Source of the DNA: a virus
Strand: one strand, 5' to 3'
Length of the DNA stretch: 41,688 nucleotides
Virus genome (UHGV): UHGV-0112358
Below the pieces are notes generated by a model. That model searched no databases. It saw nothing but the letters and a program-made list of their open reading frames with translations, and was not told the DNA's origin. How positions within the stretch are numbered: the first letter of the stretch is position 1; the number at the start of each line of letters is the position of its first letter. Below are positions 1 through 34,201 of the stretch, one piece after another. Both the position numbers and the translations under genes were made by a program.

Positions 1-50
1 AGGGCAGCCCGGGAACGCATCACCTGCAAAACCTTCTCTTTTACATCCAT
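1..50 (-). CDS. hypothetical protein (partial, runs off window start)
   Basis: ATG at 50..48 overlaps the stop of the upstream gene (ATGA); reading frame open to position 1. Confidence 0.3.
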   Translation of the reverse strand, partial: MDVKEKVLQVMRSRAA

Positions 51-403
51 CATTTTGCCTCCTGCGGCGGTTCTGGTAGCGGCATCCAGTGGGTTACATT
101 GCGGCTCTGTGTTTCGAAAAATTCATCACCATTACGGACGACATCAAAAAACTCACCGTCTCGATATTGCGCATAAAGAACGAATGCGCCATCACATAAA
201 ATAATTACGTGCTGACCATCATCAGGCATTCGCTCACTACAGCTTATCCAACCATCCGGAGTTACCGGAGAGTTGCCAGTCTTACGCATGGCAATCTCCA
301 CGATTTCAACCATATCTCCTGGCGGAATTTTACAATGCTGGCCAAAGCGCCTCTGCTGCCTGGCATACTCGAGGATGTGCTCCAGTTTGGTTCGATTAAT
401 CAT
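50..403 (-). CDS. DUF551-like phage protein
   Basis: 117-aa ORF ending ...THWMPLPEPP, recalled as typical of DUF551 phage proteins; SD AGGGGG before ATG at 403. Confidence 0.55.
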   Translation of the reverse strand: MINRTKLEHILEYARQQRRFGQHCKIPPGDMVEIVEIAMRKTGNSPVTPDGWISCSERMPDDGQHVIILCDGAFVLYAQYRDGEFFDVVRNGDEFFETQSRNVTHWMPLPEPPQEAK

Positions 404-852
404 GATTTATCCCCCTTAAGCATGGCTGCACGGCAGGCGTTCCATCCTCTCACCTCTGCAATAGCGGCAACAGCATCAACCGCGTACATGCTAAGAGGGT
501 TCGGCATTGGTTTTTCTTCCGGCACTACTGGCGCTGGAGGGGCGGCGTATACTTCAATTGTCCCATTATCAATAGGCCACTCCCCATCCTTGATGTAGTC
601 ACTTGTGCCATCGACCTGCTGTTCTGCAATGTGGAAAGCACCTATTGGTTTTGCTTCCAGTGATGCCAGTGCAATCCGTGCCAGCTCACGCACAACTTCC
701 GGCGGCGCGTAACGGTCATTCAGGTCATCCCACAGGCGTAGCATGTTATCGCTACCAGGGTGAACATCCTCGTTAGTTCCGGCAAGCGCACTAATAACCT
801 CATCGGCTGCCTCAATAATTTTCATAGCTTGTTCTCTGGTAATAGTGGTCAT
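400..852 (-). CDS. hypothetical phage protein
   Basis: 150-aa ORF; GAGGA about 8 nt before ATG; tightly packed in minus-strand operon. Confidence 0.5.
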   Translation of the reverse strand: MTTITREQAMKIIEAADEVISALAGTNEDVHPGSDNMLRLWDDLNDRYAPPEVVRELARIALASLEAKPIGAFHIAEQQVDGTSDYIKDGEWPIDNGTIEVYAAPPAPVVPEEKPMPNPLSMYAVDAVAAIAEVRGWNACRAAMLKGDKS

Positions 853-855
853 GTG

Positions 856-1143
856 TTAGTCCTCATCCACTTCAACGCCATCTTTCAGCGTGATGCCGTG
901 CCAATCATCAGCCCAACTGGTTAGCCCTGGCGCATCAATGCTAGGCATATAAACGCTTGCAGTGTGGTAGCCCTTATCGTTATCAATGCTGGCAACGTGC
1001 TCGCCGTTGTATGCGCTCAGCGTGTCTAGGACGCTATAAAACTTTCCTCCGGCTGCCCTGAAATCCTTTACAGCCTTCACAAGGCGATTCCACGCTTTTT
1101 CCTGTTCTGGCGTCAGGTCGATTAATTCCTGCAAAGTTGCCAT
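856..1143 (-). CDS. hypothetical phage protein
   Basis: Internal ATG at 1143 with SD AAGGAGAG, 1 nt after upstream stop; track ORF extends to 1185. Confidence 0.45.
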   Translation of the reverse strand: MATLQELIDLTPEQEKAWNRLVKAVKDFRAAGGKFYSVLDTLSAYNGEHVASIDNDKGYHTASVYMPSIDAPGLTSWADDWHGITLKDGVEVDED

Positions 1144-1144
1144 A

Positions 1145-1852
1145 TCACTCTCCTTTGATGCGAATGCCAGTAGCGCGGATTGCATCGATGACTTCAGAAA
1201 CTTTGTATGCCATTACCGTTTGGTAATCATCGTGAAAATCTGTTCGATGAAGCATGCTGCTACGTTCCGGGAGCGTTATTTCCCGAGCATCCAGTTCCTT
1301 AACGCGTTCCTCCAGTTCGTAGACCCTGCATTGTTCTCTATCATCAATCAGATATAACCCAAGACATTCGCTTTCTACCCAACCGCCAAAATCATGATCG
1401 TAACGCTCACATGAAAACTCACCGTCACCGTCCTTTGTTGGAATGGTGTAACTGTCTAATGGGCCACCGTACGTCGGCACATTTCCTAATGTCGGATGCT
1501 CAATCCACATAAAAAATGCACGTCCGGTTATTGGGCAAATATCTGGCCGCCATTGGTTACGAACAGCGTTGGTTTCTGATAATTCTTCAGCGTGTTGTTT
1601 TACTTCCTCAAGCTCAACACGCAGCTTCCCTACCGTTAGCGCAATATCCTCGTTCTCCTGATCGCGGCTTTTGATGTATTGCAGGTTTCTTTCCCGTTCA
1701 TCCAACAATGCCAGCGCGATATCTGGCGAAAAGTGCTTCATAAAATCGTTAAGCGCATTAATTCGCTGATCGAAAGGCATTACAGGTGCTTCACCAGCAA
1801 TTTTTGTTTTTTCAGCGATTTCACGAAGCTTTTGATAATCAATCTTGCTCAC
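1145..1852 (-). CDS. hypothetical phage protein (possibly Ea22-like)
   Basis: 242-aa track ORF; likely GTG start at 1852 preceded by AAGGAGG and overlapping upstream stop (GTGA). Confidence 0.5.
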
Positions 1853-2016
1853 TGGTTGCCTCCTTTGCGCCACATCGCATTCAGATATTTGTTTTGATTC
1901 ACTGACGGAAAAGAATTTCTCTTAAGTAATTCCTCTCTCGATGGCATTGGCTTTACGCGTTGGCGAATAATCATTTCTGCCGGAAGAATGCCGGGATTGT
2001 ATGCAAGTCCTCTCAT
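1849..2016 (-). CDS. small hypothetical protein (55 aa)
   Basis: In-frame ATG at 2016 with SD GAGGA 7 nt upstream; stop overlaps next start. Confidence 0.35.
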
Positions 2017-2026
2017 GGTAAATTCC

Positions 2027-2320
2027 TCAGTCATTACTGATAGCGCCATAGCGTGAGCGGTAATTACGCAGGCGCGGGTCAATTTCAGGGAAGTGGGTAT
2101 ATGTGGCTTTGCGGAATGGTCGGATTGATGTCTGGTAAATTCGCTCGCGTTCTTCTTTCTCTGCAAGCCATATACAATGGCGAAATTCCTTTTCCTCTTT
2201 CGTTTCCTGCGGTAGCGACATTATCCGGTCGTAGTTTTTTCCGAATTTATCCAGCACCTCCAATACGGAATTGCCGGAACAGCGGCGCGGGTCATCCGCA
2301 CCATACAGAGGCGCTGGCAT
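2027..2320 (-). CDS. hypothetical phage protein
   Basis: 97-aa ORF directly downstream of exonuclease gene in same operon. Confidence 0.45.
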
Positions 2321-2336
2321 GTTTTTCTCCTGTTGA

Positions 2337-2884
2337 TTATTTAGCTAACTTTTTCCAGATCGCTGAAACGTATTTGGCTTGGTGAATGGCATCATCAAGC
2401 GCGTTGTGGCGAGTTCCTTTGAATGGCATATCTCGCTTAGGGTCGAATCCTATTGCCTTCCCAAGTTCGACGATTGTTCTTACGTCGCGGTCATTCCACC
2501 ACTGCCACGGAACTGGCTGCCCTGTCAGCGAATAACTGTTGCGGAGAATAACGCAGTCAAATGATGCTCCATTCCCCCAAACCTGAACGAATTTGTGGTT
2601 AGCGTTCTTTATGATGAATTCAGATAACCATGAAAGAGCCGTTGAGAGCTCTTGAGTGTTGCTGGTTAGCGATTTTCTGGCTTCTTCACTCTGTTCCATC
2701 CACCATAAAATCGTTGAAGCGTCAGGACGCGCCCGATATCGCATTGATGACTCAAGCGAGATATTTACCGAGAACTCTTCTCCTGTTTCTCCGGTATTCG
2801 GGTCAAAGAATACCGCCCAATAGAAATAACTGGCGCGTATGGCCCGTTGCCCATTGTTTCAAGGTCAACCATCAAGTGATTCAT
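2337..2884 (-). pseudogene. DnaQ-like (DEDDh) 3'-5' exonuclease, disrupted by 1-nt frameshift near 2813-2821
   Basis: ATG 2884 gives MNHLMVDLETMGNGPYAPVISIG (Exo I D-x-E) then stops after 38 codons; other frame continues AVFFDPNTGE...HNALDDA (Exo III); one missing G in a G-run restores a ~182-aa protein. Confidence 0.6.
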
Positions 2885-2892
2885 GTAAGTCC

Positions 2893-3408
2893 TTAAATTG
2901 CGTGAATAGCGTGACGAGGGAAGGGGAGAGTTACTGGTGCAAAGGGGATGTCGTCGTCAAAATCCATAGGTGGTTCGCTGTGATTTCCCTGCTGCTGAGG
3001 TTGCTGTCTTTGTTGCTGACCATTATTTCGCTGAGGTGAAGACTGTTCATTGCCTCCTTGCTTGCCACCAAGCATTTGCATGGTTCCACCAACGCCCACG
3101 ATGACTTCGGTAGTGAACCGATCCTGTCCGCTTTGATCCTGCCATTTTCTTGTCCGCAATTTGCCTTCAAGATAAACCTCAGAGCCTTTTCGCAGATATT
3201 CGCTGGCAATTTCTGCCAGTTTCCCGCTCATTACCACGCGGTGCCACTCCGTCTGCTCCTTTTGCTCTCCAGTTTGCTTATCACGCCATTGTTCTGACGT
3301 AGCAACGGTAAGGTTTGCAAATGCCGTTCCTGATGGTGAATATCTGATTTCTGGATCATGCCCAAGGCGACCAATAATGATCACCTTATTTACGCCTCTG
3401 CTTGCCAT
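2893..3408 (-). CDS. ssb: single-stranded DNA-binding protein
   Basis: N-terminal OB-fold sequence [20 protein letters not shown]..., Gly/Gln-rich linker, acidic tail DFDDDIPF. Confidence 0.9.
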
Positions 3409-4116
3409 TTATGCCGCCTGTTTTAGCTCGTTAACTCTGATGTTCATTACCTGAACGCATTTAGCCTGCGCCTCCTCGTTTCCAGCCATTAATTGCCAGT
3501 CACGCTGATAACGCTCGATGAGTTTTTTCTTGTCAGTTTCTGTTGACGCATAATCGCTGAAGTCTTTCAGGATTTGTTCGCAGTCAACCGATGGAGATTT
3601 CTGGTTGGTATTTTCTGGTGATGGTTTGTTATCTGATGCTGGGATTGCCCATCCCGGCAGTGATGGAGGGAGCCAGTAAAATCCTGTTCCATCCTTCAGT
3701 TTTGCCCTGTGCCACCCCTGCTTTTTATCGAGAGATGTTTGTGCGAAACCTTCCTCAAGGTTATACAGATACCGACCGATTCCCCACTGAACGGCAGCGC
3801 GCTTCATTGCACCGGAACGACCACCTTTGACGGCTTCTACCTGCGTGTTTTCAGCAGCATCCCATTTGGTTACCCATTCGGAATCAATCTTTATTGATAT
3901 GCCGCATTCAACGCCGCCGTTGTTGGGAATATCGCGGTATTCATTGCGCCATCCTGCTTTGCCGCAAACATCGTCCAGGCGTTTCATGATTGCCCGGTTC
4001 GTGACATAAGCCAGCACCATAGCCCACACTTTGCCATCGCGTGTTTTACCGCTTTGCTGTATTCGCCATTCGATATCTTCAGGGCTGAATGGCTCATCGA
4101 ATTTATTCAAATCCAT
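3409..4116 (-). CDS. Rad52/Sak-type single-strand annealing protein
   Basis: 235 aa with motif AAVQWGIGRYLY; SD GAGGTG; position upstream of ssb in recombination module. Confidence 0.7.
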   Translation of the reverse strand: MDLNKFDEPFSPEDIEWRIQQSGKTRDGKVWAMVLAYVTNRAIMKRLDDVCGKAGWRNEYRDIPNNGGVECGISIKIDSEWVTKWDAAENTQVEAVKGGRSGAMKRAAVQWGIGRYLYNLEEGFAQTSLDKKQGWHRAKLKDGTGFYWLPPSLPGWAIPASDNKPSPENTNQKSPSVDCEQILKDFSDYASTETDKKKLIERYQRDWQLMAGNEEAQAKCVQVMNIRVNELKQAA

Positions 4117-4215
4117 AATTCACCTCAGAATGGACACGGCCCAAGGAAATAACGCTGATTTAATACTTCGACTCGGGACAAATTAAGGCATACCCGCATT
4201 CCTTCGCGGTCACCA

Positions 4216-4374
4216 TTATGGCGATACCAGAGAGCTTTCTGCGTGTACATGCGTCTCTGTAACTTGCTCTCCTTCACCGTGGTTGCAAGTGACATGAATA
4301 TCTCCTTCGTTACCGATTAAATCTTTCATCTGACGAATGAATTCTTCGTCTGACCAGTTATCTGTAAAACTCAT
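4216..4374 (-). CDS. small hypothetical protein (52 aa)
   Basis: ATG overlaps Kil-like stop (ATGA); ORF below track cutoff. Confidence 0.3.
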   Translation of the reverse strand: MSFTDNWSDEEFIRQMKDLIGNEGDIHVTCNHGEGEQVTETHVHAESSLVSP

Positions 4375-4523
4375 TTCCTGCGATACCACGGAAGGTTGAT
4401 AGCTGATTTCATCGCTTTATTTGCTTCAAGCCACATTTTTGAATCACCAATAAAGCTGGCTATTACTGCTTTGTTTTGTGCTGCACGAAGCATCTGGTGA
4501 TTGATGGCTATTTCATTGCGCAT
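4371..4523 (-). CDS. kil: Kil-like host-killing peptide (50 aa)
   Basis: MRNEIAINHQMLRAAQNKAVIASFIGDSKMW... resembles recalled lambda Kil (IATFIGDEKM); directly downstream of cIII as in lambda. Confidence 0.45.
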   Translation of the reverse strand: MRNEIAINHQMLRAAQNKAVIASFIGDSKMWLEANKAMKSAINLPWYRRK

Positions 4524-4639
4524 AATAAGACCTCAACTCTTTTCCATCCGTCACGTAATTTACGGGTGATTCGTTCAAGTAAAGATTCATTTAGTTGGAA
4601 GGCACCCATGCGAGCGCCTCCCGCGATTGCGTAAATCAT
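4508..4639 (-). CDS. cIII: cIII-like protease inhibitor (43 aa)
   Basis: MIYAIAGGARMGAFQLNESLLERITRKLRDGWKR matches recalled lambda CIII core; below track cutoff. Confidence 0.75.
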   Translation of the reverse strand: MIYAIAGGARMGAFQLNESLLERITRKLRDGWKRVEVLLCAMK

Positions 4640-4662
4640 GGGTGGTTCCTTATGTTGGTTTA

Positions 4663-5631
4663 TTAGTAGGTTATTTTTGTTGCGAATACTTCGCCTTTTA
4701 CGATGGCTGTTATGATATTTTTAGCAACATCTTCTGATGCGCCAACCTTGATAATGTCAGCAAGTATTTTGTTATTTACTTCTTTCCGGTGAGCTTTATC
4801 CTTTGCTCTACGCTCTTCTTCGTCCTTGATTCTTTTTTCTTCTGCTATTCTGGCTTGCTCTTTTGCTTCAGCCTCGCGCCGGATTCGTTCAGCCTCCTCC
4901 TGTGCTTTTCGGCGTTCTGCTTCAATTGCCGCCTGCTTTTCTCTTTCAGCTCGTTCTGCTGCCTCTTTTGCTTCGCGCTGTGCTCGTTGCTCGGCTTCAA
5001 TGCGTTCACGCTCTGCACGTTCCGCTGCGGCCTTAGCTTCTGCTTCTCGCCTTGCTGCTGCTTCAATTTCGGCTTTTGCCTTTGCTTCGGCTTCTGCTCT
5101 GGCTTTCTCTTCAGCTTCTCTTTTTAAGCGTTCTTCATGCTCTCGCTTTTCCTGCTCCGCTTTGAGTCTTGCCTCTTCTCTTTGGCGGTCAAATTCGCGA
5201 TCCATCAAAATCGCTATTTCATGGTCAGACTCAATTTGCTTTGCGAGAGCTTCAGCTGCTGCCTTAGCTTCTTCTTCGGCTTTAATCCGTGCCTGTTCCT
5301 CCTCATAATCAGTAAGAGGCTGGCGCGCCTTGGCTTTCAGTTCATCAAGGCGATCGCGCACTGTCTTGCGGTTAGCATCAATTAGCTTTGGAATTTCCTT
5401 CAGTTCAGCAACAAGGTCTTTGCCAAGACCATCGAGATATGTTTTCGTCTGCGCAACTTTATACGCCAGAGAAGCGATCTCCTTTCTGCCCTTTGCCGTT
5501 GTGATATCAGGCACAAAGGACATAACTTCACGTTCAACCTTTTGGAGAATTTCTTCAATCTGGTCGGCAGACTGAAATACAGTCATCGCATTTGCTTTTT
5601 CAATAACAACTAAATCTGTTACTTCACTCAT
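4663..5631 (-). CDS. coiled-coil protein with E/A/K/R-rich repeat core, unknown function
   Basis: ATG at 5631 with SD GGAGG; ~170-aa low-complexity charged central region between globular ends; track ORF extends to 5727. Confidence 0.6.
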   Translation of the reverse strand: MSEVTDLVVIEKANAMTVFQSADQIEEILQKVEREVMSFVPDITTAKGRKEIASLAYKVAQTKTYLDGLGKDLVAELKEIPKLIDANRKTVRDRLDELKAKARQPLTDYEEEQARIKAEEEAKAAAEALAKQIESDHEIAILMDREFDRQREEARLKAEQEKREHEERLKREAEEKARAEAEAKAKAEIEAAARREAEAKAAAERAERERIEAEQRAQREAKEAAERAEREKQAAIEAERRKAQEEAERIRREAEAKEQARIAEEKRIKDEEERRAKDKAHRKEVNNKILADIIKVGASEDVAKNIITAIVKGEVFATKITY

Positions 5632-5643
5632 ATATCCTCCATC

Positions 5644-5670
5644 AAAAAAAATCGCCCTCACACTGGAGGG
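5644..5670 (-). terminator. rho-independent terminator inside pL operon (tL-like)
   Basis: Minus strand CCCTC-cagtgt-GAGGG then T8, immediately before the RBS of the coiled-coil gene. Confidence 0.5.
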
Positions 5671-5922
5671 AAAAGAAGATTTCCAATAATCAGAACAAGT
5701 CGGCTCCTGTTTAGTTACGAGCGACATTGCTCACATAGCAGACTCGTAAATCTGCTATAGGCGCTTATTCGCATCGCATGACAACATCAAATTTTTCGAG
5801 ATTACTTTGTCGCAACAATCCTTTTTCTACGCGGTCAGCTTTTCTATAATTATCAAATTAGAAATGTTTAATTACTTCTTTCGTTTCTCGCTCTATAACT
5901 TCAACAATGTATTTCTTATTCA

Positions 5923-6201
5923 TCATTCTTCCCCCAGAGCCTTGCTGATGGCTGCCTTGGCTCGTTTGTATTCGGTTAACTCTCTGCACCCTTCGTCATG
6001 CTCGTAAATGAAGACAAGCTCTTGCAGTGCTTCAAGCAAATCAGGAGCTGCTGCTATCAGTAGCGCATCCTCCCTTTCATTTCTTGTTGCTGCTTCAATG
6101 TATGTGTCACCAATCGTCACACCATGGAACGTAGTCATCATCTCGTTGACGTTTCTAACCGTGTACTTCCATTTACCAGGCGTACCCTTAAACTCTTTCA
6201 T
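5923..6201 (-). CDS. hypothetical protein (92 aa)
   Basis: ATG at 6201 preceded by GAGGTGG; track ORF starts at GTG 6207. Confidence 0.45.
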   Translation of the reverse strand: MKEFKGTPGKWKYTVRNVNEMMTTFHGVTIGDTYIEAATRNEREDALLIAAAPDLLEALQELVFIYEHDEGCRELTEYKRAKAAISKALGEE

Positions 6202-6221
6202 ATCCACCTCTGTTGTTTATG

Positions 6222-6245
6222 CCAAAAATAAAGGCCGACTATGCG
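6222..6245 (-). terminator. rho-independent terminator (tL1-like)
   Basis: Minus strand AGGCCG-catagt-CGGCCT followed by TTTATTTTT. Confidence 0.45.
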
Positions 6246-6253
6246 GCCTGAAA

Positions 6254-6565
6254 TTACTTAACCAATGATGCCGCATATTCAATTAGGAATAACTTAGGTG
6301 CAAGCCAAATCTTCAACCATTCGAAATTGAAGGCAATAATTAAAACACCCATAATTGAGCCAAATATAGGAACAAATACAGTGCATATATCGTAATAAAC
6401 CGAAGATATAAAATGTTCATCATTTGGACGTCCATCGAAAGACGTCCATCTCTCGCCATTATTTCTTGCCGTTCTTGCAAAACTAGGAAGTTTAATTGCT
6501 GCAATTAAAAGCAACAATCCAGCCACTTGGAAAAGTGCGCTATGGACAAAACTCCATATTAGCAA
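6254..6565 (-). CDS. putative small membrane protein, no ATG/GTG start (TTG at 6565)
   Basis: Open frame 6254..6679 directly after N; hydrophobic segments; only in-frame start is TTG without clear SD. Confidence 0.3.
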   Translation of the reverse strand: MLIWSFVHSALFQVAGLLLLIAAIKLPSFARTARNNGERWTSFDGRPNDEHFISSVYYDICTVFVPIFGSIMGVLIIAFNFEWLKIWLAPKLFLIEYAASLVK

Positions 6566-6684
6566 CTGATGAACAACATCAGGAATCTGTGCCTGGCTAA
6601 ATGAAACAGCCGCGTCTATTCCATTGCTGGCTTTTTGCAGTAGTTCTACGAGAATCTTGTTTGCTTGTTCTTCTACATCTCACC

Positions 6685-7020
6685 TCAAATAAGTGGTTTG
6701 CTGCCTAATTTCATTTTTTGGCGACCAACACAAGTCACCCCCATTTCACTGCGTGGCTTGCGGTAGTAAATACGGTTCTGTTTACGCTCGACTTCTTCTG
6801 CCTTCTTGCAGCGAAGGCTTCCGAGTGATGCTGCTTTTTCAGAAAGGCTTAAACGCTTTCTTGGGGCTTCCTGAACAGGTTCCTCACTGTCTGTGCCGAA
6901 GATCGAATCGATGATGTTGCATATAGCATCACGCTCGATAGCCAGCTTTCTGCGCCGCTCATGACGGCGAGTTTTGGCATTTCCTGCAAATGTTGATTTC
7001 CCGTACACGATTACCGTCAT
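6685..7020 (-). CDS. N: N-like transcription antiterminator
   Basis: Arg-rich motif GNAKTRRHERRRKLAIERD (P22 gp24-like) and C-terminus ...GVTCVGRQKMKLGSKPLI (lambda N-like); ATG 7020 with SD GAGGA. Confidence 0.8.
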   Translation of the reverse strand: MTVIVYGKSTFAGNAKTRRHERRRKLAIERDAICNIIDSIFGTDSEEPVQEAPRKRLSLSEKAASLGSLRCKKAEEVERKQNRIYYRKPRSEMGVTCVGRQKMKLGSKPLI

Positions 7021-7139
7021 GATGTTTTCCTCATGTGAAATGGCTTTGGTGGTGATGCGCCAGATGCTGATCTTCTGGTTGCTGTCGTTGCAGCTGCAAT
7101 TCACATCACCGCCAAACCCATCTCGTTTGGTATCTGTTT

Positions 7140-7173
7140 GCGCTTTGTCAGCGCCCCATCGAAGTTAAAGAGC
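7140..7173 (-). promoter_or_regulatory. nutL (boxA GCTCTTTAA, boxB GCGCTGACAAAGCGC)
   Basis: Minus-strand boxA-like then P22-type boxB hairpin between pL and N. Confidence 0.55.
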
Positions 7174-7212
7174 CTGCCAATCTGTTCCGTTTGGCGTCCT
7201 GCTGATGGCTAA

Positions 7213-7243
7213 ATAGTACGATGTGTACTTTATTGAGTCAATA
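7213..7243 (-). promoter_or_regulatory. pL promoter with OL operator dyad
   Basis: Minus strand -35 TTGACT (7241..7236), 17-nt spacer, -10 TACTAT (7218..7213); dyad AGTACGATGTGTACT (7215-7229) in spacer. Confidence 0.4.
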
Positions 7244-7304
7244 CAAAATGTTCTAAATGCGGTTAGTTTTTTATAACACTTTGTATTTTATTGATTTATA
7301 TTTT

Positions 7305-7334
7305 GGAAAAAGAAAACCCGACGCTAAGGTCGGG
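7305..7334 (-). terminator. rho-independent terminator downstream of cI
   Basis: Minus strand CCCGAC-cttagc-GTCGGG followed by TTTTCTTTTT. Confidence 0.5.
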
Positions 7335-7366
7335 TTATTGTTGTGTGTTTTAGAGTGGTGAGGCTG

Positions 7367-8026
7367 TTAACTAAATGTCTCTTCAGGCCACTGGCTGGCG
7401 ATAACTTTCCCTACTACGGAACAGCTATCATTGCATGGGATCATTGGATATTGCGGGTTTAGTGGTTGTAGGAACACCTGACCGCTATCCCTGATCAGTT
7501 TCTTGAAGGTAAACTCGTCACCACCAAGTCTGGCTATGCAGAAATCACCTGGCTCAACAGCCTGCTCAGGGTCAACGAGAATTAACATCCCGTCAGGAAA
7601 GCTTGGCTTGGATCCTGTTGGTGCGGTCATGGAATTACCTTCAACTTCAAGCCAAAACGCACAATCACTGGCTTTTTTGGTTGTGCTGACCCATCTCTCC
7701 GCATCGCCTTTGGTAAAGGTTCTAAGCTCAGGCGAGAACATCCCGGCCTGAACATGAGAAAAAACAGGGTACTCATATTGTTTTTTAACGGGGGCAGATG
7801 AGTATTCGCCAACAGGTGAAAATGTACCGTCGTGGTTGAATGAGACGTTATCAATACCAAGGTATTTAAACACCACACCAATCTCGTCAAGAGATGGATG
7901 ACGAGATCCGCGCAACCAGTGACCAATTCCACCCTGCGTCATACCAAGCTCTTCAGCTAACTTCTCTTGAGTTATGCCGAGCTCTTTCATTCTGGATCTA
8001 GCCAGTTCATACCATTTCATTTTCAT
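7367..8026 (-). CDS. cI: CI-type prophage repressor (HTH N-terminus, lambda-like S24 C-terminal domain)
   Basis: C-terminal half near-identical to recalled lambda CI ([15 protein letters not shown]...GNSM...ASQWPEETF); N-terminal HTH differs; start MKMKW at 8026, track ORF extends to 8101. Confidence 0.9.
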
Positions 8027-8137
8027 ACCCTTATTATTACGCTCTGTACTAAAACCATCCATGCACAAGATGTATTTTTTGTTTGCATTCCAAAAGTACA
8101 TATCGTATTATTGTTTCATGGTTACTATGGAGGGCAT
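8027..8137. promoter_or_regulatory. OR region: pR promoter and candidate operators
   Basis: pR -35 TTGCAT (8083-8088), 17-nt spacer, -10 TATTAT (8106-8111); operator-like dyads ATTACGCTCTGTACT (8036-8050) and AGTACATATCGTATT (8095-8109). Confidence 0.45.
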
Positions 8138-8353
8138 ATGAGCAACCTACGAAAATATCGAGAGTCACTGAATATCTCTCAAACAACACTTGCTAAGGCG
8201 GTTGGATGCACACAGGGAGCTATCGGACATTGGGAATCTGGTCGTCGCTTCCCAGACCTTAAAACATGCCGTGCTCTTGTTGCGTGCCTAAACAAGTTAG
8301 GCGCAAAAGTCAGTCTTGATGACGTGTTCCCACCGGAACACAAAGCCGCTTAA
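8138..8353 (+). CDS. cro: Cro-like HTH repressor
   Basis: 71-aa HTH protein (ISQTTLAKAVGCTQGAIGHWESG) divergent from cI; SD GGAGGG; track ORF starts upstream at 7967. Confidence 0.75.
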   Translation: MSNLRKYRESLNISQTTLAKAVGCTQGAIGHWESGRRFPDLKTCRALVACLNKLGAKVSLDDVFPPEHKAA

Positions 8354-8363
8354 TAAGCGGATC

Positions 8364-8398
8364 CGCTCTTTATCAATCTGCACCGCCGACAACGCGGT
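8364..8398 (+). promoter_or_regulatory. nutR (boxA CGCTCTTTA, boxB ACCGCCGACAACGCGGT)
   Basis: boxA consensus 10 nt after cro stop, then hairpin with GACAA-type loop. Confidence 0.55.
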
Positions 8399-8462
8399 AA
8401 CTAATTAATCACTCATCGAAAGATGAGTATTAGTGATTATTTACCTATGGAAATAGTAAGAA

Positions 8463-8759
8463 ATGGAACAAACAAGTTACAGCAAACTATCACAGCGCGA
8501 CGTTGATCGCGCTGAAACAGATTTACTCATCAACCTGTCAACGCTTACACAGCGCGGTCTGGCAAAGATGATTGGCTGTCATGAATCGAAGATAAGCAGA
8601 ACGGACTGGAGATTTATTGCTTCGGTCTTGTGTGCTTTCGGAATGGCATCAGACATCAGTCCGATTAGCAGGGCTTTTAAGTATGCGCTTGATGGAATCA
8701 CAAAGAAAAAATCCCCGGTGGCCGCCGGGGACTCTAAGCAAATTGATATGCAATTCTGA
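8463..8759 (+). CDS. cII: CII-like transcriptional activator
   Basis: HTH core and C-terminus ...KKKSPVAAGDSKQIDMQF resembling recalled lambda CII (...RSEQIQMEF). Confidence 0.7.
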   Translation: MEQTSYSKLSQRDVDRAETDLLINLSTLTQRGLAKMIGCHESKISRTDWRFIASVLCAFGMASDISPISRAFKYALDGITKKKSPVAAGDSKQIDMQF

Positions 8760-8791
8760 GGGAATTACTGGATCAATCCACAGGAGTCATT

Positions 8792-9637
8792 ATGACAAAT
8801 ACAGCAAAAATACTCAACTTCGGCAGAGGTAACTTTGCCGAACAGGAGCTAAGAGTGGCTGATATCGATGATGGTTACACCAGATTCGCTAACGAGCTGC
8901 TGGAAGCTATCGCAAGTGCCGATTTAACCGCTCGCCAGTTGAAAGTTATGCTGGCCTACGTCCGGAAAACATATGGATTCAATAAGAAAACAGATCGAAT
9001 AGCCGATGAGCAAATTGCTCAGTTAACAGGACTGTCAAGGCAGAATGTTAACAAGGCTAAAAAAGAACTGATTTCAATGAATTGCCTGTTTATGGATGGA
9101 AATAAAATCGGTGTAAACAGGGAGGTATCTGCGTGGCAATTCAGCAAGTGTCTCCAAGTTAGCAACTTTGTCTCGAAGTTAGAGACAAAAAATGTCTCCA
9201 AATTAGAGACACTCAATGTCTCGAAGTTAGAGACACACAAAAGACATTCTTTAAAGACAAAAGAAAATATTAATAAACCCCCTATATCCCCCAAAAAAAT
9301 TTCTCAGAAGTTCGACCCGCTAGAAACAGAGTTGCCTGATTGGTTATCGGCAGAAACATGGTTGTCGTGGGTTACCTATCGCAAGGAGATAGGTAAGTCG
9401 ATCAAGTCTAAGCAAAGCGTCACTCAGGCTATCAACGTTCTAAGCAGAAGTCTGGAGAAGGGATATACACCTGAAGAAATTATAAACCAGAGCATCGCCA
9501 GTGGTTGGCAGGGGATTTTTGAACCCAAGACTCCAAAGGGGAAATCTCAACCGAGGCCGCAGCAGCGAGCTATGCAGGAAAACTTTGCCGCCAAAGATTA
9601 CGGGCAAACTGAAATGCCTTCATGGGCGCAGGAGTGA
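8792..9637 (+). CDS. O: replication initiator O (lambda-O-like N-terminal domain)
   Basis: MTNTAKILNFGRGNFA... matches recalled lambda O N-terminus; iterons inside the gene; C-terminal domain differs. Confidence 0.85.
   Translation: MTNTAKILNFGRGNFAEQELRVADIDDGYTRFANELLEAIASADLTARQLKVMLAYVRKTYGFNKKTDRIADEQIAQLTGLSRQNVNKAKKELISMNCLFMDGNKIGVNREVSAWQFSKCLQVSNFVSKLETKNVSKLETLNVSKLETHKRHSLKTKENINKPPISPKKISQKFDPLETELPDWLSAETWLSWVTYRKEIGKSIKSKQSVTQAINVLSRSLEKGYTPEEIINQSIASGWQGIFEPKTPKGKSQPRPQQRAMQENFAAKDYGQTEMPSWAQE
9149..9235 (+). repeat. origin iterons (ori) inside O
   Basis: TGTCTCGAAGTTAGAGACA at 9169, 9193, 9217 (24-bp period) plus degenerate copy at 9149; each palindromic TGTCTC/GAGACA; followed by A/T-rich stretch 9236-9300. 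Confidence 0.8.
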
Positions 9638-9639
9638 AC

Positions 9640-10485
9640 ATGACGCTGGATGAAAAGATCTCCCAACTGGAGAAAAAACTTGCAGAATTGAGTTCTCCGC
9701 CAATTGCTATCGAGCATACAGCTGTAGAAATTGGCACTGGCATCTGTGAAAAACATGGTGAGTTTGAGCAGCGTAACCGTTACTCGACTGGGCCAATTAA
9801 GTTTGCCTCAAGACCTAGCGAATGCCCGGAATGCATGAGAGATGAGCTTATTCGGCTACAGGCAGAGAAGATTAAAATCGACGAAGAATCACGTAAGCGC
9901 AATGTCGAGTTTCTGTTGAATAATCTTGATATTCCTGAACGATTCAAGGGTTGCACACTACAGAACTACGAGCCAGTCAACGACGATGCAAAGAGAGTGC
10001 TCAGGGTGTGTCAGGCATACGCCAGCAAATGGCCTGAGAGGTTACAGAAAGGCGGTGGGCTGGTTATGTGCGGAAAGCCTGGTACTGGAAAGAATCATCT
10101 TGCACTGGCTATCGCCCGGCACGCAATTACGGAACATCAAAGCTCAGCTATTTTCACAACGGCGCTGAAAATTGCCAGAGAATATAAATCAACATGGTCT
10201 AAAAACTCCACCCGCACAGAGGATGAAGTGATCCGACAGTTCACTAAACCTGACCTGCTAATTATCGATGAGGTTGGTGTGCAGTTTGGAAGCGAGGCGG
10301 AAAAGATGATCATGTTCGAAATCATCAACACCCGCTACGAGTGCATGAAGCCAACAATCCTGATTAGCAACCAGAGCAAAGATGAACTGTCTGCATTCAT
10401 TGGTGAGCGTGTTATTGACAGGATGAATGATGGCGGCGGGTGCACTCTTGCGTTTACATGGGATAGTTACAGGAGCAGATCGTGA
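9640..10485 (+). CDS. DnaC/IstB-type helicase loader ATPase
   Basis: Walker A MCGKPGTGKNHLA, Walker B LLIIDEVG; ATG 9640 with SD AGGAGTG; track ORF starts 9622. Confidence 0.85.
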   Translation: MTLDEKISQLEKKLAELSSPPIAIEHTAVEIGTGICEKHGEFEQRNRYSTGPIKFASRPSECPECMRDELIRLQAEKIKIDEESRKRNVEFLLNNLDIPERFKGCTLQNYEPVNDDAKRVLRVCQAYASKWPERLQKGGGLVMCGKPGTGKNHLALAIARHAITEHQSSAIFTTALKIAREYKSTWSKNSTRTEDEVIRQFTKPDLLIIDEVGVQFGSEAEKMIMFEIINTRYECMKPTILISNQSKDELSAFIGERVIDRMNDGGGCTLAFTWDSYRSRS

Positions 10486-10772
10486 CTGGAAAAGAAATCA
10501 TCCTGGAATATCTGAAAACTCATGAACAATTCTCCCCACATGAATTAGCACTGATCACCGGAATACCAAATAACAGAATCGCTCAAGCAGCAAGGCATAT
10601 GGTGAAACAAGGGAATTTGAGTGTTGTTGAGCGTAAGTGGAAGACGGTTATTTATGCAAAACGCAAAGTGAAGAAGGAGCCAATTAAAAGAAATCCAGAT
10701 GGTACGGGGTGGGGATGTGCAAATCCAATGACGGCGTTTATTAATAGGGCGCTTATGGAGGTAAGGCAATGA
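10482..10772 (+). CDS. hypothetical protein (possible winged-helix)
   Basis: 96-aa ORF, GTG start overlapping upstream stop. Confidence 0.45.
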   Translation: MTGKEIILEYLKTHEQFSPHELALITGIPNNRIAQAARHMVKQGNLSVVERKWKTVIYAKRKVKKEPIKRNPDGTGWGCANPMTAFINRALMEVRQ

Positions 10773-10798
10773 CCATCTACATCACTGAGCTAATAACA

Positions 10799-10826
10799 GG
10801 CCTGCTGGTAATCGCAGGCCTTTTTA
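10799..10826 (+). terminator. rho-independent terminator (tR2-like) before nin region
   Basis: GGCCTGC-tggtaatc-GCAGGCC followed by TTTTT. Confidence 0.6.
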
Positions 10827-10845
10827 TTTGGGGGAGAGGGAAGTC

Positions 10846-11286
10846 ATGAAAAAACTAACCTTTGAAATTCGATCTCCAGCACATCAGCAAAACGCTATTC
10901 ACGCGGTACAGCAAATTCTTCCAGACCCAACCAAACCAATCGTAGTAACCATTCAGGAACGCAACCGCAGCTTAGACCAAAATCGGAAGCTTTGGGCTTG
11001 CCTTGGTGACGTCTCTCGTCAGGTTGAATGGCATGGTCGCTGGCTGGATGCAGAAAGCTGGAAGTGTGTGTTTACCGCAGCATTAAAGCAGCAGGACGTT
11101 GTTCCTAACCTTGCCGGGAATGGCTTTGTGGTAATAGGCCAGTCAACCAGCAGGATGCGTGTAAGCGAATTTGCGGAGCTATTAGAGCTTATACAGGCAT
11201 TCGGTACAGAGCGTGGCGTTAAGTGGTCAGACGAAGCGCGACTGGCTCTCGAATGGAAAGCGCGATGGGGAGATCGGGCTGCATGA
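10846..11286 (+). CDS. ninB: NinB (Orf) recombination mediator
   Basis: MKKLTFEIRSPAHQQNAIHAVQQIL... near-identical to recalled lambda NinB; SD GGAGAGGG. Confidence 0.85.
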   Translation: MKKLTFEIRSPAHQQNAIHAVQQILPDPTKPIVVTIQERNRSLDQNRKLWACLGDVSRQVEWHGRWLDAESWKCVFTAALKQQDVVPNLAGNGFVVIGQSTSRMRVSEFAELLELIQAFGTERGVKWSDEARLALEWKARWGDRAA

Positions 11287-11810
11287 CTATCAAATCAAAT
11301 ACGCCAGCACACGACAAGGACTGCTGGCAAACGCCGCTTTGGCTTTTTGATGCACTGGATATTGAGTTTGGATTCTGGCTGGATTCGGCAGCGAGCGACA
11401 AAAATGCTCTGTGTGCTCACTGGCTAACTGAGGCCGACGACGCGCTCAATTCTGAGTGGGTAAGCCACGGTGCAATCTGGAATAACCCACCGTACAGCAA
11501 TATCAGGCCGTGGGTGGAAAAAGCTGCTGAGCAGTGCATACAACAGCGACAGACGGTAGTTATGCTTGTGCCAGAGGATATGTCAGTCGGATGGTTCAGC
11601 AAGGCTCTGGAGAGTGTCGACGAAGTTCGCATTATCACTGATGGACGGATTAATTTTATCGAACCATCGACAGGGCTGGAGAAGAAGGGAAACAGCAAAG
11701 GCTCCATGCTGCTGATTTGGCGACCGTTCATCAGTCCTCGACGGATGTTTACTACCGTATCCAAAGCGGCATTGATGGCGATCGGGCAGGGTGTCAGGAG
11801 GGCGGCATGA
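11283..11810 (+). CDS. phage-type DNA N6-adenine methyltransferase
   Basis: [14 protein letters not shown]...IWNNPPYS motif; start overlaps ninB stop (ATGA). Confidence 0.75.
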
Positions 11811-11983
11811 GGCGACAGCGACGAAGTATCACCGACATCATCTGCGAAAACTGCAAATACCTTCCAACGAAACGCTCCAGAAATAAACGCAAGCCAATCC
11901 CAAAAGAATCTGACGTAAAAACCTTCAACTACACGGCTCACCTGTGGGATATCCGGTGGCTAAGACATCGTGCGAGGAAATGA
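11807..11983 (+). CDS. ninE: NinE
   Basis: [23 protein letters not shown]...[14 protein letters not shown] matches recalled lambda NinE. Confidence 0.7.
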
Positions 11984-12384
11984 CAATGGATTATTCACAG
12001 TTAAGTGATTTTGAAATTAACGTGGCGGTATTCGAATCCATTCATAACGGATCACCGGATTACAAAGAAGGTGAGAATGGCGATATGGTGTTTGTCTCAT
12101 TTGAGGGAGACATTGTAAACGGAGACGCAGTTGAAGTAGAAGTTGAGCGCGGATCCTTTAACCCATGCGTAAACCCAGCAGACGCATGGCCGATTATCAC
12201 TGAAAACAAAATTAGCACCATGTGGATGACAGCGGAAAAAGAATGGTGCGCATGGTCAGGAGGTGATTTAGAGGAAGGTTGTTGGGAATGGGAAAATATT
12301 CCTGACTACTGCTTCTGCGGTGAATCGCCTCTCCGCGCAGCCATGATTGTATTTCTCATGATGCAGGACGCCAATAATGCTTAG
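11980..12384 (+). CDS. hypothetical nin-region protein
   Basis: ATG overlaps ninE stop; acidic/Trp-rich 134-aa product; track ORF starts at GTG 11944. Confidence 0.5.
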
Positions 12385-12553
12385 CCCATCCCAATCCCTT
12401 CAATACCAGAAAGAAAGCGTCGAGCGAGCTTTAACGTGCGCTAACTGCGGTCAGAAGCTGCATGTGCTGGAAGTTCACATGTGTGAGCACTGCTGCGCAG
12501 AACTGATGAGCGATCCGAATAGCTCAATGTACGAGGAAGAAGACGATGAATGA
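12377..12553 (+). CDS. ninF: NinF (Cys-rich, 58 aa)
   Basis: [43 protein letters not shown] matches recalled lambda NinF; below track cutoff. Confidence 0.6.
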   Translation: MLSPSQSLQYQKESVERALTCANCGQKLHVLEVHMCEHCCAELMSDPNSSMYEEEDDE

Positions 12554-13268
12554 GTTAATAAATGGCAATGCCATCAAAATGACAAGCATTGAAATCGCTG
12601 AGTTGGTGGGTAAGCGTCATGACAATGTGAAACGTACCATCGAAACGCTGGCTAAAAATGGTGTTATCCGGCTTCCTCAAATTGAGGTTTCCGAAAGAAT
12701 CAATAACTTAGGGTTCAATGTTCAGTACGAGCATTACGTCTTCGAGGGCGAACAAGGTAAGCGAGACAGTATTGTCGTTGTAGCCCAGTTGTCGCCGGAA
12801 TTCACGGCTCGCCTTGTTGACCGTTGGCGAGAGCTTGAAGAAGCTGCGGTTAATATCCCAAAAACGCTACCAGAAGCGTTGCGCCTTGCTGCTGACCTTG
12901 CTGAGCAGAAAATGCAACTGGAAAACCAGCTCGCAATTGCCGCACCTAAAGTTGAGTTTGCCGATCGCGTTGGCGAGGCCAGCGGAATTTTGATTGGAAA
13001 CTTTGCAAAGGTTGTTGGAATTGGTCCAAACAAACTGTTTGCGTGGATGCGCGATCACAAAATCCTTATTGCTTCAGGTTCCCGGCGCAATGTGCCAATG
13101 CAGGAATATATGGATCGCGGCTATTTCACAGTGAAAGAAACAGCGTTCAACACAAATCACGGAATACAGATATCGTTCACCACAAAAATCACCGGGCGTG
13201 GTCAACAGTGGCTGACCAGAAGGCTGCTCTATAGCGGAATGCTGAAAGTAACAGGGGAGGCTGCTTAA
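12546..13268 (+). CDS. Rha-family regulatory / antirepressor-like protein
   Basis: N-terminal motif SIEIAELVGKRHDNVKRTIETL; C-terminal antirepressor-like domain; SD GAGGAAG. Confidence 0.65.
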   Translation: MNELINGNAIKMTSIEIAELVGKRHDNVKRTIETLAKNGVIRLPQIEVSERINNLGFNVQYEHYVFEGEQGKRDSIVVVAQLSPEFTARLVDRWRELEEAAVNIPKTLPEALRLAADLAEQKMQLENQLAIAAPKVEFADRVGEASGILIGNFAKVVGIGPNKLFAWMRDHKILIASGSRRNVPMQEYMDRGYFTVKETAFNTNHGIQISFTTKITGRGQQWLTRRLLYSGMLKVTGEAA

Positions 13269-31927: not shown

Positions 31928-32386
31928 CTATTGACTAATTTCCCGCATGAATGCAATTGTTTTTGCCATTTTCTCAGAGTGATCAATTGTCTCAACGAGA
32001 AATTTTCGCGCGGGAGATTGCTCATTCTCGCCTCGGAATGTGGCGTTAATGTTTTGCATTGCTGCATTTTTCCACATGCTTACTTCTTCTATGGATTGCG
32101 ATAATGATGCTGAAGATGCAGCGTCAAAGCATATACCATACGATGAATCTCGTATATCTGACGGTGACTTGCCAATAGCACTAAGTTGATTTCCATACTT
32201 TTTTACCATGTCGTTAGCCATATCCTGACAAACTTCATCAATGCTTTTGCCCATGCCTGCAACATAAGGAGAAGCATCTTTTATTAAAGACATCATTTTT
32301 TCCTTATCTTTGTCGGATGCAGCATAAGCTGCGAGTGATAGAAGAACGGAAGAAAATATTGCTATTGTGAAAAATCTGGATTTCAT
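31928..32386 (-). CDS. secreted/periplasmic protein of unknown function (moron)
   Basis: Signal peptide MKSRFFTIAIFSSVLLSLAAYAASD; SD AGGGGAAAGA; opposite strand to tail genes. Confidence 0.6.
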   Translation of the reverse strand: MKSRFFTIAIFSSVLLSLAAYAASDKDKEKMMSLIKDASPYVAGMGKSIDEVCQDMANDMVKKYGNQLSAIGKSPSDIRDSSYGICFDAASSASLSQSIEEVSMWKNAAMQNINATFRGENEQSPARKFLVETIDHSEKMAKTIAFMREISQ

Positions 32387-32502
32387 TCTTTCCCCTTGTA
32401 ACGTTTCCTATGTTTGTATCCGTTAACTTAAGCAAAAGCACGCAACACTCGGTTTTACGCAGGATACCAGATGATACTGTGTAGTTGGAGTAGTGCGGTT
32501 GC

Positions 32503-32594
32503 AATGCAAGCATTTTGCTTTTGTTTTATGCTTGCTTGTATGTGGGTACAGTGCATATAATGCAAGCATATATCACAGCAAAGGTGCTTGCATT
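32503..32594. promoter_or_regulatory. operator array (4 copies of AATGCAAGCAT) over a consensus promoter
   Basis: Copies at 32503-32514, 32528-32535, 32559-32570, 32585-32594 in alternating orientation; -35 TTGCTT (32532-32537), -10 TATAAT (32556-32561). Confidence 0.5.
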
Positions 32595-33587
32595 ATGACT
32601 GAAAAGAAAAGTGGTGAAGGGAAAGCTAAGGGCGGAATCGCTCGCGCAAAGTCGCTGACTAAAGAGCAGCGTTCTGAAATAGCAAAGAAAGCAGCGGCTG
32701 CAAGATGGAAGGATAAACCATTAATTGCTACGCATAAGGGATCGTTCCAGCATGAATTCGGGATTGATGTTGAGTGCTATGTGTTAAATGATGATAACAA
32801 AACTGCCGTTATTAGCCAGAGAGGCATGGGAGAAGCGATTGGTCTTGGCGAAGGTGGCAGCAGGTTGCCAAAGTTTATTCAGGGGAAAACTATTTCTCAG
32901 TATATCGGGCATGAATTAAGGGCAAAACTTGAAAATCCTCTTATTTTTCAATACAAACAGGTGGGCACGAACACACCAGCTAACCCTGTAATACATGGCT
33001 ACGATGTAACAATCTTAATTGATTTATGTCGAGCAATCTCTAACGCTAAAGCTGAAGGTAAGTTGCTTTCTAGTCAGGAAGGGATTGCTAAGCAAGCCAG
33101 GATAATTATTGATGCATCAGCCAAGGCGGGAATTCAGGGGCTTGTTTATGCTTTGGCAGGGTATGACAGAACAAAAGAAGAAGTAATTCAAGCATATAAG
33201 CGATATGTTGCTGAAGAGGCTCGTGAGTATGAAAGAGAGTTCACCCCTGAACTTTATGAGCATTGGTATCGTCTGTATGGTATAGACAAACCAGTTAGAG
33301 GGCGACCGTGGGCGTTTAAATATCTTACGATAGATCACATTTACTACCCATTAGCCAGAAGTGAAGGAAAGGTATTTAATTTAGCAAAAACGTCAAAAGA
33401 AGAGAAAGGCAGCAAAAACGATAAAATACACCAGTTTTTATCAGAGGTTGGAGTTAAAGCTCTTAGAACCCAAATAGGTAAGGTTACTGGTATTGCAATG
33501 GTTTCTGATACTCGAGAAGAGTATGAGAAATACATAGATGAAAAGGTTATTGGACAAAGAACCATCGACTTAAAAGATAAAGAATAA
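32595..33587 (+). CDS. KGG-motif / P63C-like protein of unknown function
   Basis: ATG 32595 after SD; N-terminus GKAKGGIARAKSLTKEQRSEIAKKAAAARW; track ORF starts upstream at 32493. Confidence 0.55.
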   Translation: MTEKKSGEGKAKGGIARAKSLTKEQRSEIAKKAAAARWKDKPLIATHKGSFQHEFGIDVECYVLNDDNKTAVISQRGMGEAIGLGEGGSRLPKFIQGKTISQYIGHELRAKLENPLIFQYKQVGTNTPANPVIHGYDVTILIDLCRAISNAKAEGKLLSSQEGIAKQARIIIDASAKAGIQGLVYALAGYDRTKEEVIQAYKRYVAEEAREYEREFTPELYEHWYRLYGIDKPVRGRPWAFKYLTIDHIYYPLARSEGKVFNLAKTSKEEKGSKNDKIHQFLSEVGVKALRTQIGKVTGIAMVSDTREEYEKYIDEKVIGQRTIDLKDKE

Positions 33588-33616
33588 GAAAAACCCACCG
33601 TCAGGTGGGTTTTTTG
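33588..33616. terminator. bidirectional terminator between convergent genes
   Basis: A-run, ACCCACC-gtca-GGTGGGT, T-run. Confidence 0.6.
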
Positions 33617-33921
33617 TTTAGCAGTTCTCTTAACTTTTCGTTTTGCTCTCTGAACTTTTCCTGTATTTCTTTTTGCATGGCGATAACCTGGGCTTGAAGT
33701 TGAACTAGCGCATCAACATTTAGCGGAACCGAGACGCTGTTGATTTTGTCTGCTATTTCCCCAAGAGTATTTTCTGCATTCAAGGCATCTTCCAGTATCT
33801 GCACAATCTCTGAGTTCATTGATCTGCCGTTACGTTTAGCTCGTTCAGCTATAGCATCTCGCATTCCGTCAGGAAAACGGAGGTTGAACTTGTCGTAGTC
33901 TTTTACTTGTTTTTCGGCCAT
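33601..33921 (-). CDS. mnt: Mnt/Arc-type ribbon-helix-helix repressor
   Basis: KFNLRFPDGMRDAIAERAKRNGRSMNSEIVQ RHH motif; divergent from arc-ant pair; track ORF extends to 33960. Confidence 0.6.
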   Translation of the reverse strand: MAEKQVKDYDKFNLRFPDGMRDAIAERAKRNGRSMNSEIVQILEDALNAENTLGEIADKINSVSVPLNVDALVQLQAQVIAMQKEIQEKFREQNEKLRELLNKKPT

Positions 33922-33939
33922 TGCAAATCTCTCAAAAAA

Positions 33940-34012
33940 ACCATGGTGCCATATTGCCATACGATTTCAATGGTGGCATTATGGCCTTCATGGCGTCACT
34001 TTGGCACCAAAT
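33940..34012. promoter_or_regulatory. divergent promoter/operator region of immI-like switch
   Basis: Inverted half-sites GGTGCCA / TGGCACC repeated between the mnt-like and arc-like starts. Confidence 0.4.
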
Positions 34013-34027
34013 AAAGGAGATTAGATA

Positions 34028-34201
34028 ATGCAAGATACACTTTTCACTGAGCGCAAAAATATCAAACTCAACCTTCGCCTTCCATCACGGCTGAATGAAG
34101 ACCTTCGCCGCCTGGCGGAAATGGACTGTATATCTCTGAACTCTGCAATTGTTCGTTTGCTGGCAAAAGGTGTTAGGGAAGAGGTGGCGAATGGTCGCTA
34201 A
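34028..34201 (+). CDS. arc: Arc-like ribbon-helix-helix repressor (57 aa)
   Basis: [36 protein letters not shown] motif; SD AAAGGAG; below track cutoff. Confidence 0.6.

Follow-up and report, generated by a model that had tools for sequence, protein, structure and literature searches.

A frameshifted DexA-like exonuclease gene in the early-left recombination module of a gut Escherichia coli prophage

The split exonuclease gene and its neighborhood

The stretch of DNA analyzed here (the window, 41,688 nucleotides) is a complete gut-metagenome contig, ENA ERZ1304610 NODE_567_length_41688_cov_18.49 (locus L075), a SPAdes-style short-read contig with a k-mer coverage of about 18x, and it is a gut E. 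coli prophage. Its early region, which extends to approximately 18.3 kb, is lambdoid and P22-Sf6-like, with 94 to 98% identity to pieces of many phages. The late region (18267-41688) has nearly no nucleotide match among deposited phages and codes for an intact-looking terminase, a portal, a Mu-F-like protein, a DUF2213 protein, a DUF3383 (E217 gp31-like) protein, and baseplate J. It is thus a contractile-tail-type morphogenesis module fused to the P22/Sf6-like early region, and the contig ends inside the baseplate genes. Within the late operon, a cluster at 31928-35207, located partly on the opposite strand, contains the two genes at the foot of Table 1 together with a 364-aa ORF and a putative antirepressor of 352 aa. 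These genes were assigned from their translations only, and on that basis we take their arrangement to recall the P22 immI region.

The early-left recombination module is arranged in the order erf/Rad52-like gene, ssb, exonuclease, and abc2 (Table 1). The abc2 gene has its own Shine-Dalgarno sequence, AGGAG, 16 nt past the exonuclease stop codon, and the N gene, responsible for antitermination of the early-left transcript, is present in the window. The same gene order, with an intact exonuclease gene of 549 nt, is found in phages mEp235, mEpX2, epsilon34, and Bas106. Phages Sf6, IME10, N7, and ECP1 match the window at ssb and abc2 and have no exonuclease in between, so the exonuclease can be considered an accessory gene. 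We found no second frameshifted gene in the window, which would be a sign of poor assembly, and intact ORFs account for the apparent gaps in a crude ORF tiling.

Table 1. Coordinates of the exonuclease gene fragments and of other features in the window.
Feature	Position	Strand	Remarks
abc2 (Anti-RecBCD_p2, PF11043), intact	2027..2320	-	Downstream of the exonuclease
Rest of the exonuclease gene, -1 frame, Ala24 to Lys182 plus TAA	2337..2816	-	Contains D110 and H160-x4-D165
ORF2, longest start-initiated remnant, 135 aa from native Met48	2337..2744	-	Without Exo I
ORF1, 5' exonuclease fragment, 39 codons plus TAA	2765..2884	-	23 native plus 16 out-of-frame residues
Perfect 8-bp hairpin, CGGTATTC/GAATACCG, 8-nt loop	2792..2815	-	Directly 3' of the G-run; from folding
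Lesion: GGG, which is GGGG in intact alleles	2816..2818	-	One G lost in codons Gly23/Ala24
ssb (PF00436), intact	2893..3408	-	Upstream of the exonuclease
Erf/Rad52-Rad22 family single-strand annealing protein, intact	3409..4116	-	Early-left recombination module
152-aa protein with signal-peptide-like N-terminus	31928-32386	-	Translation only
Small protein, putative Arc/Mnt-type ribbon-helix-helix	33601-33960	-	Translation only

On the minus strand, the ATG at 2884 opens MNHLMVDLETMGNGPYAPVISIG, the 23 native residues of the enzyme with DLET at positions 7 to 10, and the out-of-frame residues that follow run into the ORF1 stop, a TAA at 2767-2765. The -1 frame stays open from 2860 until the TAA at 2339-2337, with the translation AVFFDPNTGE...TRHNALDDAIHQ...KKLAK; its part downstream of the lesion comprises 159 codons and has the same protein sequence as the intact alleles. 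The Shine-Dalgarno sequence of ORF2 is weak, consisting only of a GAG 7 to 9 nt upstream of its ATG. No gene with the exact 39-aa product of ORF1 is on record in the public gene collection, so gene callers evidently skip this ORF.

The original prediction for this locus, made from the bare sequence, was of a DnaQ-like (DEDDh) exonuclease gene split by a single-base frameshift, and it proved correct as to the identity of the gene, the site of the lesion, and its repair. Adding one G to the GGG at 2816-2818 does restore a continuous protein, with 182 aa, the approximate length predicted. The N-terminal fragment carries the Exo I motif (DLET) before its stop as described, although it has 39 codons and not the 38 first counted. 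The remainder, which includes HNALDDA, lies in another frame and lacks an early start, as no ATG, GTG, or TTG occurs in that frame before the ATG at 2744. The suggested comparison with intact orthologs gave the same picture: in an alignment with four intact phage orthologs, the missing G of GGGG is the sole indel in the gene.

A DEDDh exonuclease of the DexA type

The repaired protein matches the Pfam family PF16473 (Rv2179c-like 3'-5' exonuclease) over the complete profile (positions 1 to 177 of 177; 247.9 bits, with a cutoff of 27 bits; E value of 6.6e-74) and phrog_255, annotated as "exonuclease," with an E value of 2.2e-86. Given both matches of the repaired protein, the split-gene anatomy is far beyond chance. 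The match to PF00929 is weak, PADLOC returned only a weak generic DEDDh match, and none of the NCBIfam models matched. A family search gave 3,846 matches, and most of the best 120 clusters consist of single ORFs of approximately 180 to 190 aa. The founder of PF16473, Rv2179c of Mycobacterium tuberculosis, is a chromosomal 3'-5' exoribonuclease. Its Pfam family matches the repaired window protein at full length, but Rv2179c is an RNase, while the closest characterized phage relative of the window protein, T4 DexA, acts on DNA.

DexA is also the closest solved structure by sequence (PDB 8KEL/8KEN; E value of 1e-13), and the repaired protein is 33% identical to it over 163 aa (E value of 2e-19). 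Both share the same PHROG (255) and the DEDDh catalytic set. The Exo I D-x-E residues D7 and E9 (DLET), located in ORF1, align to D7 and E9 of DexA; the Exo II residue D110 (SFD) aligns to D119; and the Exo III motif H160-NALD-D165 corresponds to H186-x4-D191, with the C-terminal alignment corrected by eye. These motifs, the PF16473 match, and the alignment to the four phage orthologs establish the DEDDh assignment. DexA differs in its larger size (227 aa against the 182 aa of the repaired protein), with extra loops and a C-terminal extension, and in that the gene in the window is inactivated. The catalytic motifs of the window copy are not on one polypeptide: Exo I is in frame 0 and Exo II and III are in frame -1, with the stop of ORF1 between them. 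No intact enzyme is possible, because the product starting at Met48 has no Exo I (D7 and E9) and therefore lacks two of the four metal-binding acids. The window copy is thus a pseudogene of the DEDDh family and not a functional member of it.

In DexA, residues W152 and D169 are reported to recognize 5hmC-containing DNA, and D90 to mediate tetramer formation (PMC12153337). By pairwise alignment only, W130 and D152 of the repaired protein are the equivalents of W152 and D169, and D90 has no counterpart, as it falls in an alignment gap. A DexA homolog of E. coli, EcD/HREX (HAK9828821.1), is reported to cut only 5hmC-modified T4 DNA and to protect against T4; it is described as keeping the catalytic and the W/D recognition residues and as lacking the D90 tetramer contact (PMC12153337). 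The repaired window protein resembles EcD in these features, with W130 and D152 present and no D90 counterpart, and both are short DexA homologs from bacteria or prophages. They are not the same protein, however, as the EcD cloning primers give an M-I-D-T-E-T start (equivalent to Met5 here) and a different 3' end. Scans of viral contigs with the EcD primer patterns gave no match, a MIDTET start was found in none of the 134 proteins examined, and EcD is absent from the best 120 family clusters.

By analogy with EcD and its reported destruction of 5hmC-modified T-even phage DNA, a minor nuclease function may have gone missing where the allele is broken. Candidate roles for the subfamily are recombination, nucleotide scavenging, and the exclusion of modified phages. 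That it simply serves prophage defense seems uncertain, since the early-left operon would normally be repressed in the lysogen.

Intact alleles, carriers of the short G-run, and origin of the lesion

The intact 3'-5' exonucleases of lambdoid and P22-like prophages (e.g., mEp235 gp030, mEpX2 gp032, epsilon34 gp34, and Bas106_0031; UniRef UPI000854688E) are the same gene in the same slot between ssb and abc2, with a DNA identity of 97.6 to 99.5% to the window gene. The window copy differs from them in having GGG instead of GGGG at codons 23/24, which results in ORFs of 39 and 135 aa. The long run is by far the prevalent form. Among 65 IMG/VR contigs retrieved with a pattern that accepted either run length, 63 have GGGG, one has GGGT (Ala24Ser), and one has GGG, the latter being a copy of the lineage of the window. 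Both of the two species-representative genomes have GGGG. A 61-nt query centered on the junction located the sequence at 158 places in 149 complete E. coli genomes, and no match reached 99% identity, so GGG is present in 0 of the 149. The best 60 matches in a whole-gene search all have one extra base and are annotated as intact 3'-5' exonuclease, and 161 public contigs from E. coli and Shigella encode a protein identical to the repaired one.

Apart from the additional G, the intact alleles L078-L085 have just two differences from the window gene, the synonymous changes G>A at nt 12 and C>T at nt 240; ten intact alleles have these two changes and at most one more, all of them synonymous. The lesion is therefore very recent, as the remainder of the gene codes for the same protein as a common intact allele, from which its DNA is separated by two synonymous changes only. 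Judging from the sequence, the frameshift is the sole predicted functional lesion of the gene.

Three other records of the gene deserve a mention on their own account. The contig IMGVR_UViG_2551306526_000008 (L056) has GGGT in place of the same G-run (Ala24Ser) in an otherwise intact gene, which makes it a second variant at these four bases. In IMGVR_UViG_3300045988_091063 (L013), codon 4 is changed from TTG to TAG, and a restart is possible at Met5 (MVDLET...); this allele may still be functional, as EcD begins at the equivalent position (MIDTET). An intact E. coli-type exonuclease junction sequence was also found on JAFADF010000066.1 (L071), a 3.9-kb contig of a MAG labeled "Actinomycetes bacterium," which is probably an enterobacterial prophage fragment misbinned into an actinomycete MAG.

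Gene callers would report the intact gene with 182 aa, which means that a call of the 135-aa remnant marks a broken gene. It is called as a gene on 8 contigs, and all the copies among those listed have GGG: JGI 3300029828 (46.8 kb), JGI 3300029567, ENA ERZ920321 (56.5 kb), and ERZ1304610, the assembly of the window itself. The window contig is recorded for two samples, and the 3300029567 entry stands for four further similar places. ERZ920321 is a MEGAHIT assembly of run ERR1190803, and the allele calls rest on assembled contigs. The GGG allele is therefore found in at least three other sample assemblies, and the pipelines involved are SPAdes, MEGAHIT, and JGI. A scan of the metagenome_contigs collection for GGG returned 0 matches; this collection evidently does not contain the JGI carrier samples, so the scan adds no support.

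The carriers fall into two structural contexts, each backed by at least two assemblies. The ERZ920321 contig (L073) is 100% identical to positions 1-12744 of the window and extends beyond its left end to an integrase. The contig from 3300029828 (L072, and its IMG/VR entry L047) is 100% identical to positions 1139-12744 and then continues into a different ea/int module, which at its end adjoins the genes of a pectinesterase, a 753-aa aconitase-family protein, and a 477-aa transporter. We take these three genes to be ybhC-ybhJ-ybhI, located near the lambda attachment site on the K-12 map. The contig from 3300029567 (L074) has the structure of L072, with 1 mismatch in 11,606 nt. On the other side of the junction at window position 1139, the module in L073 contains a Fic/PhdYeFM pair, a dUTPase, a Tad2-like gene, and a different integrase. 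An 11.6-kb early region of 99.99 to 100% identity placed on two different ea/integrase modules points to a very recent module exchange at a gene boundary. As the lesion is carried within this region across two backbones and several samples, it is inherited, and the early region continued to propagate, or was exchanged, after the gene had been inactivated.

The original prediction had left two possibilities side by side, a pseudogene or a homopolymer sequencing error, and the recurrence of the allele in different assemblies and backbones, together with the Illumina chemistry, strongly favors the former. If an error had occurred, the true sequence would be GGGG, the gene would be intact, and one G would have been lost in base-calling or in the consensus. 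A single base missing in a homopolymer is the classic signature of such an error, and an error would likewise leave the rest of the gene flawless, as it is here. Nevertheless, GGG comes from three pipelines, at least three other sample accessions, and two contexts, one of them with a nearby SNP, and 12.7 kb of the window are base-for-base the same as in an independent MEGAHIT assembly. The traceable cohort (ERR1190803; PRJEB12124, a Shanghai type-2-diabetes cohort) was sequenced on an Illumina HiSeq 2500 with 100-bp paired-end reads, and in Illumina short reads a run of 3 or 4 bases is not prone to indels. Furthermore, more than 200 other records (64 viral contigs and 149 genomes) have the same flanks with an assembled GGGG, which argues against a systematic error specific to this context. 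With the chemistry, the separate libraries and assemblers, and the behavior of the same flanks elsewhere all on one side, a dropped base is very unlikely, and we regard an intact gene hidden by an error as quite improbable. The carrier samples may be incompletely independent: the ERR1190803 cohort was sampled at baseline and at 3 months, the JGI samples and ERZ1304610 might come from the same cohort or person as ERR1190803, and ERZ1304610 could be a reassembly of this run.

A two-ORF structure shared among orthologs would, by the original prediction, have counted against it; the structure is shared only by DNA-identical copies (99.99 to 100% over 11.6 kb) and by no diverged ortholog, so the sharers of GGG represent identity by descent. 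This bears on the idea that the split is regulated, with the full-length enzyme restored at or near the GGG by transcriptional slippage or by a programmed -1 ribosomal frameshift. Reasoning from the sequence, the exact wild-type peptide would be restored if the Gly-tRNA slipped back by one base on U-GGG-C, the next codon is CGG, uncommon in E. coli, and the hairpin begins directly 3' of the G-run. However, X XXY YYZ heptamers are absent from the 96-nt frame overlap, and its longest homopolymer has 3 nt. The hairpin directly adjoins the site and does not lie 5 to 9 nt downstream, and the intact alleles have it just the same. None of the 149 genomes and none of the 64 other viral contigs conserves the layout, and most of the leading family clusters are single ORFs, as described above. 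With no slippery heptamer, no run above 3 nt, and no conservation of the split, we rejected recoding, to which we assign next to no probability. Phase variation was rejected as well. Phase-variable loci have a long mutable homopolymer, usually of at least 7 nt, with both length alleles common; the run here has only 3 or 4 G's, and the short allele is absent from all 149 genomes and elsewhere restricted to one lineage.

The remnant starting at Met48 could also be expressed and have a residual or new noncatalytic role, for example, in DNA binding or in poisoning dimers with a co-resident intact homolog. Its ORF is intact, it retains both Exo II and Exo III as well as the counterparts of W152 and D169 of DexA, several pipelines call it as a gene, and enzymes of the DexA family act as dimers or tetramers (PMC12153337). 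Against such a role, its Shine-Dalgarno sequence is restricted to the weak GAG, and stable folding seems doubtful because the missing first 47 residues include Exo I and the initial core strands of the DEDD fold. The allele is also rare and young and gives no hint of selection for the remnant. We find a role of this kind very unlikely.

Consequently, the locus is best explained, with a high degree of confidence, as a genuine, recent, and inherited loss-of-function allele, caused by a one-base deletion, of a dispensable DexA-like exonuclease (PF16473/phrog_255). Its most likely origin would be replication slippage in the short G-run, from GGGG to GGG at 2816-2818. Translation from the native start ends after 39 codons, and the remaining 159 codons are left in the -1 frame without a start before the native Met48. 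The exonuclease appears to be dispensable for the phage, since related phages lack the gene or have an HNH gene in its place. The neighbors abc2, ssb, and erf would be expected to be still expressed, and polarity on the downstream genes is probably minor, given the AGGAG of abc2 itself and the presence of the N gene. The event is ordinary, and the gene family was already known. The locus should be annotated as a frameshifted pseudogene of a DexA-like 3'-5' exonuclease, in place of two hypothetical ORFs. As one further accessory gene of a gut E. coli prophage that was inactivated recently, it has little weight alone.

Deletion endpoints beside the lesion

The hairpin is followed by an 18-nt polypurine tract, so that the G-run, the hairpin, and the tract lie within approximately 45 nt. 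This short region is also where other alleles of the locus break. Five independent junction alleles (L087, L088, L089, L097, and L100) lose homology to the window within 2794-2800, an interval of about 6 nt located at the 3' arm of the hairpin and the 5' edge of the polypurine tract, approximately 20 nt downstream of the G-run. L100 (L100/L106) is the same junction allele as that of the finished genome TUM10008. The anchor sequence for this breakpoint hotspot is GGAGAAACAGGAGAAGAG. At the protein level, the otherwise nearly identical clusters P0009, P0026, P0027, and P0028 have unrelated N-termini, all joined at ...|GETGEEFSVN. The DNA abutting each of the five junctions is different. Three of the five read as simple deletions to window-equivalent positions of approximately 11.8, 13.1, and 23.2 kb, which remove the ssb/immunity/replication side and keep the abc2/int side. 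The clustering of the endpoints is real.

We found no microhomology of more than 6 nt and no shared motif at the junctions. A motif located 20 nt from the junction in two of the partners, ACGATATC, was rejected as a chance match, as approximately 19% of shuffles share a 7-mer at matching offsets. Chi was rejected too, since no Chi site (GCTGGTGG) occurs on either strand in the 41.7-kb window. Cutting by a homing endonuclease is weakened as an explanation by Bas106, which has an HNH gene between ssb and the exonuclease and the same hotspot sequence.

Any link between the clustered endpoints and the one-base deletion is speculative. The 5' end of the exonuclease gene could be a mechanistic fragile site that seeded both the one-base slippage and the five large prophage deletions, although we consider this unlikely. 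If it were true, the decay of lambdoid prophages would have a site-specific starting point here. The endpoint cluster, the one finding that might merit further attention, would be worth a population-scale look in studies of prophage decay. Of 155 records from complete E. coli genomes, 150 retain the 5' end of the exonuclease gene in full.
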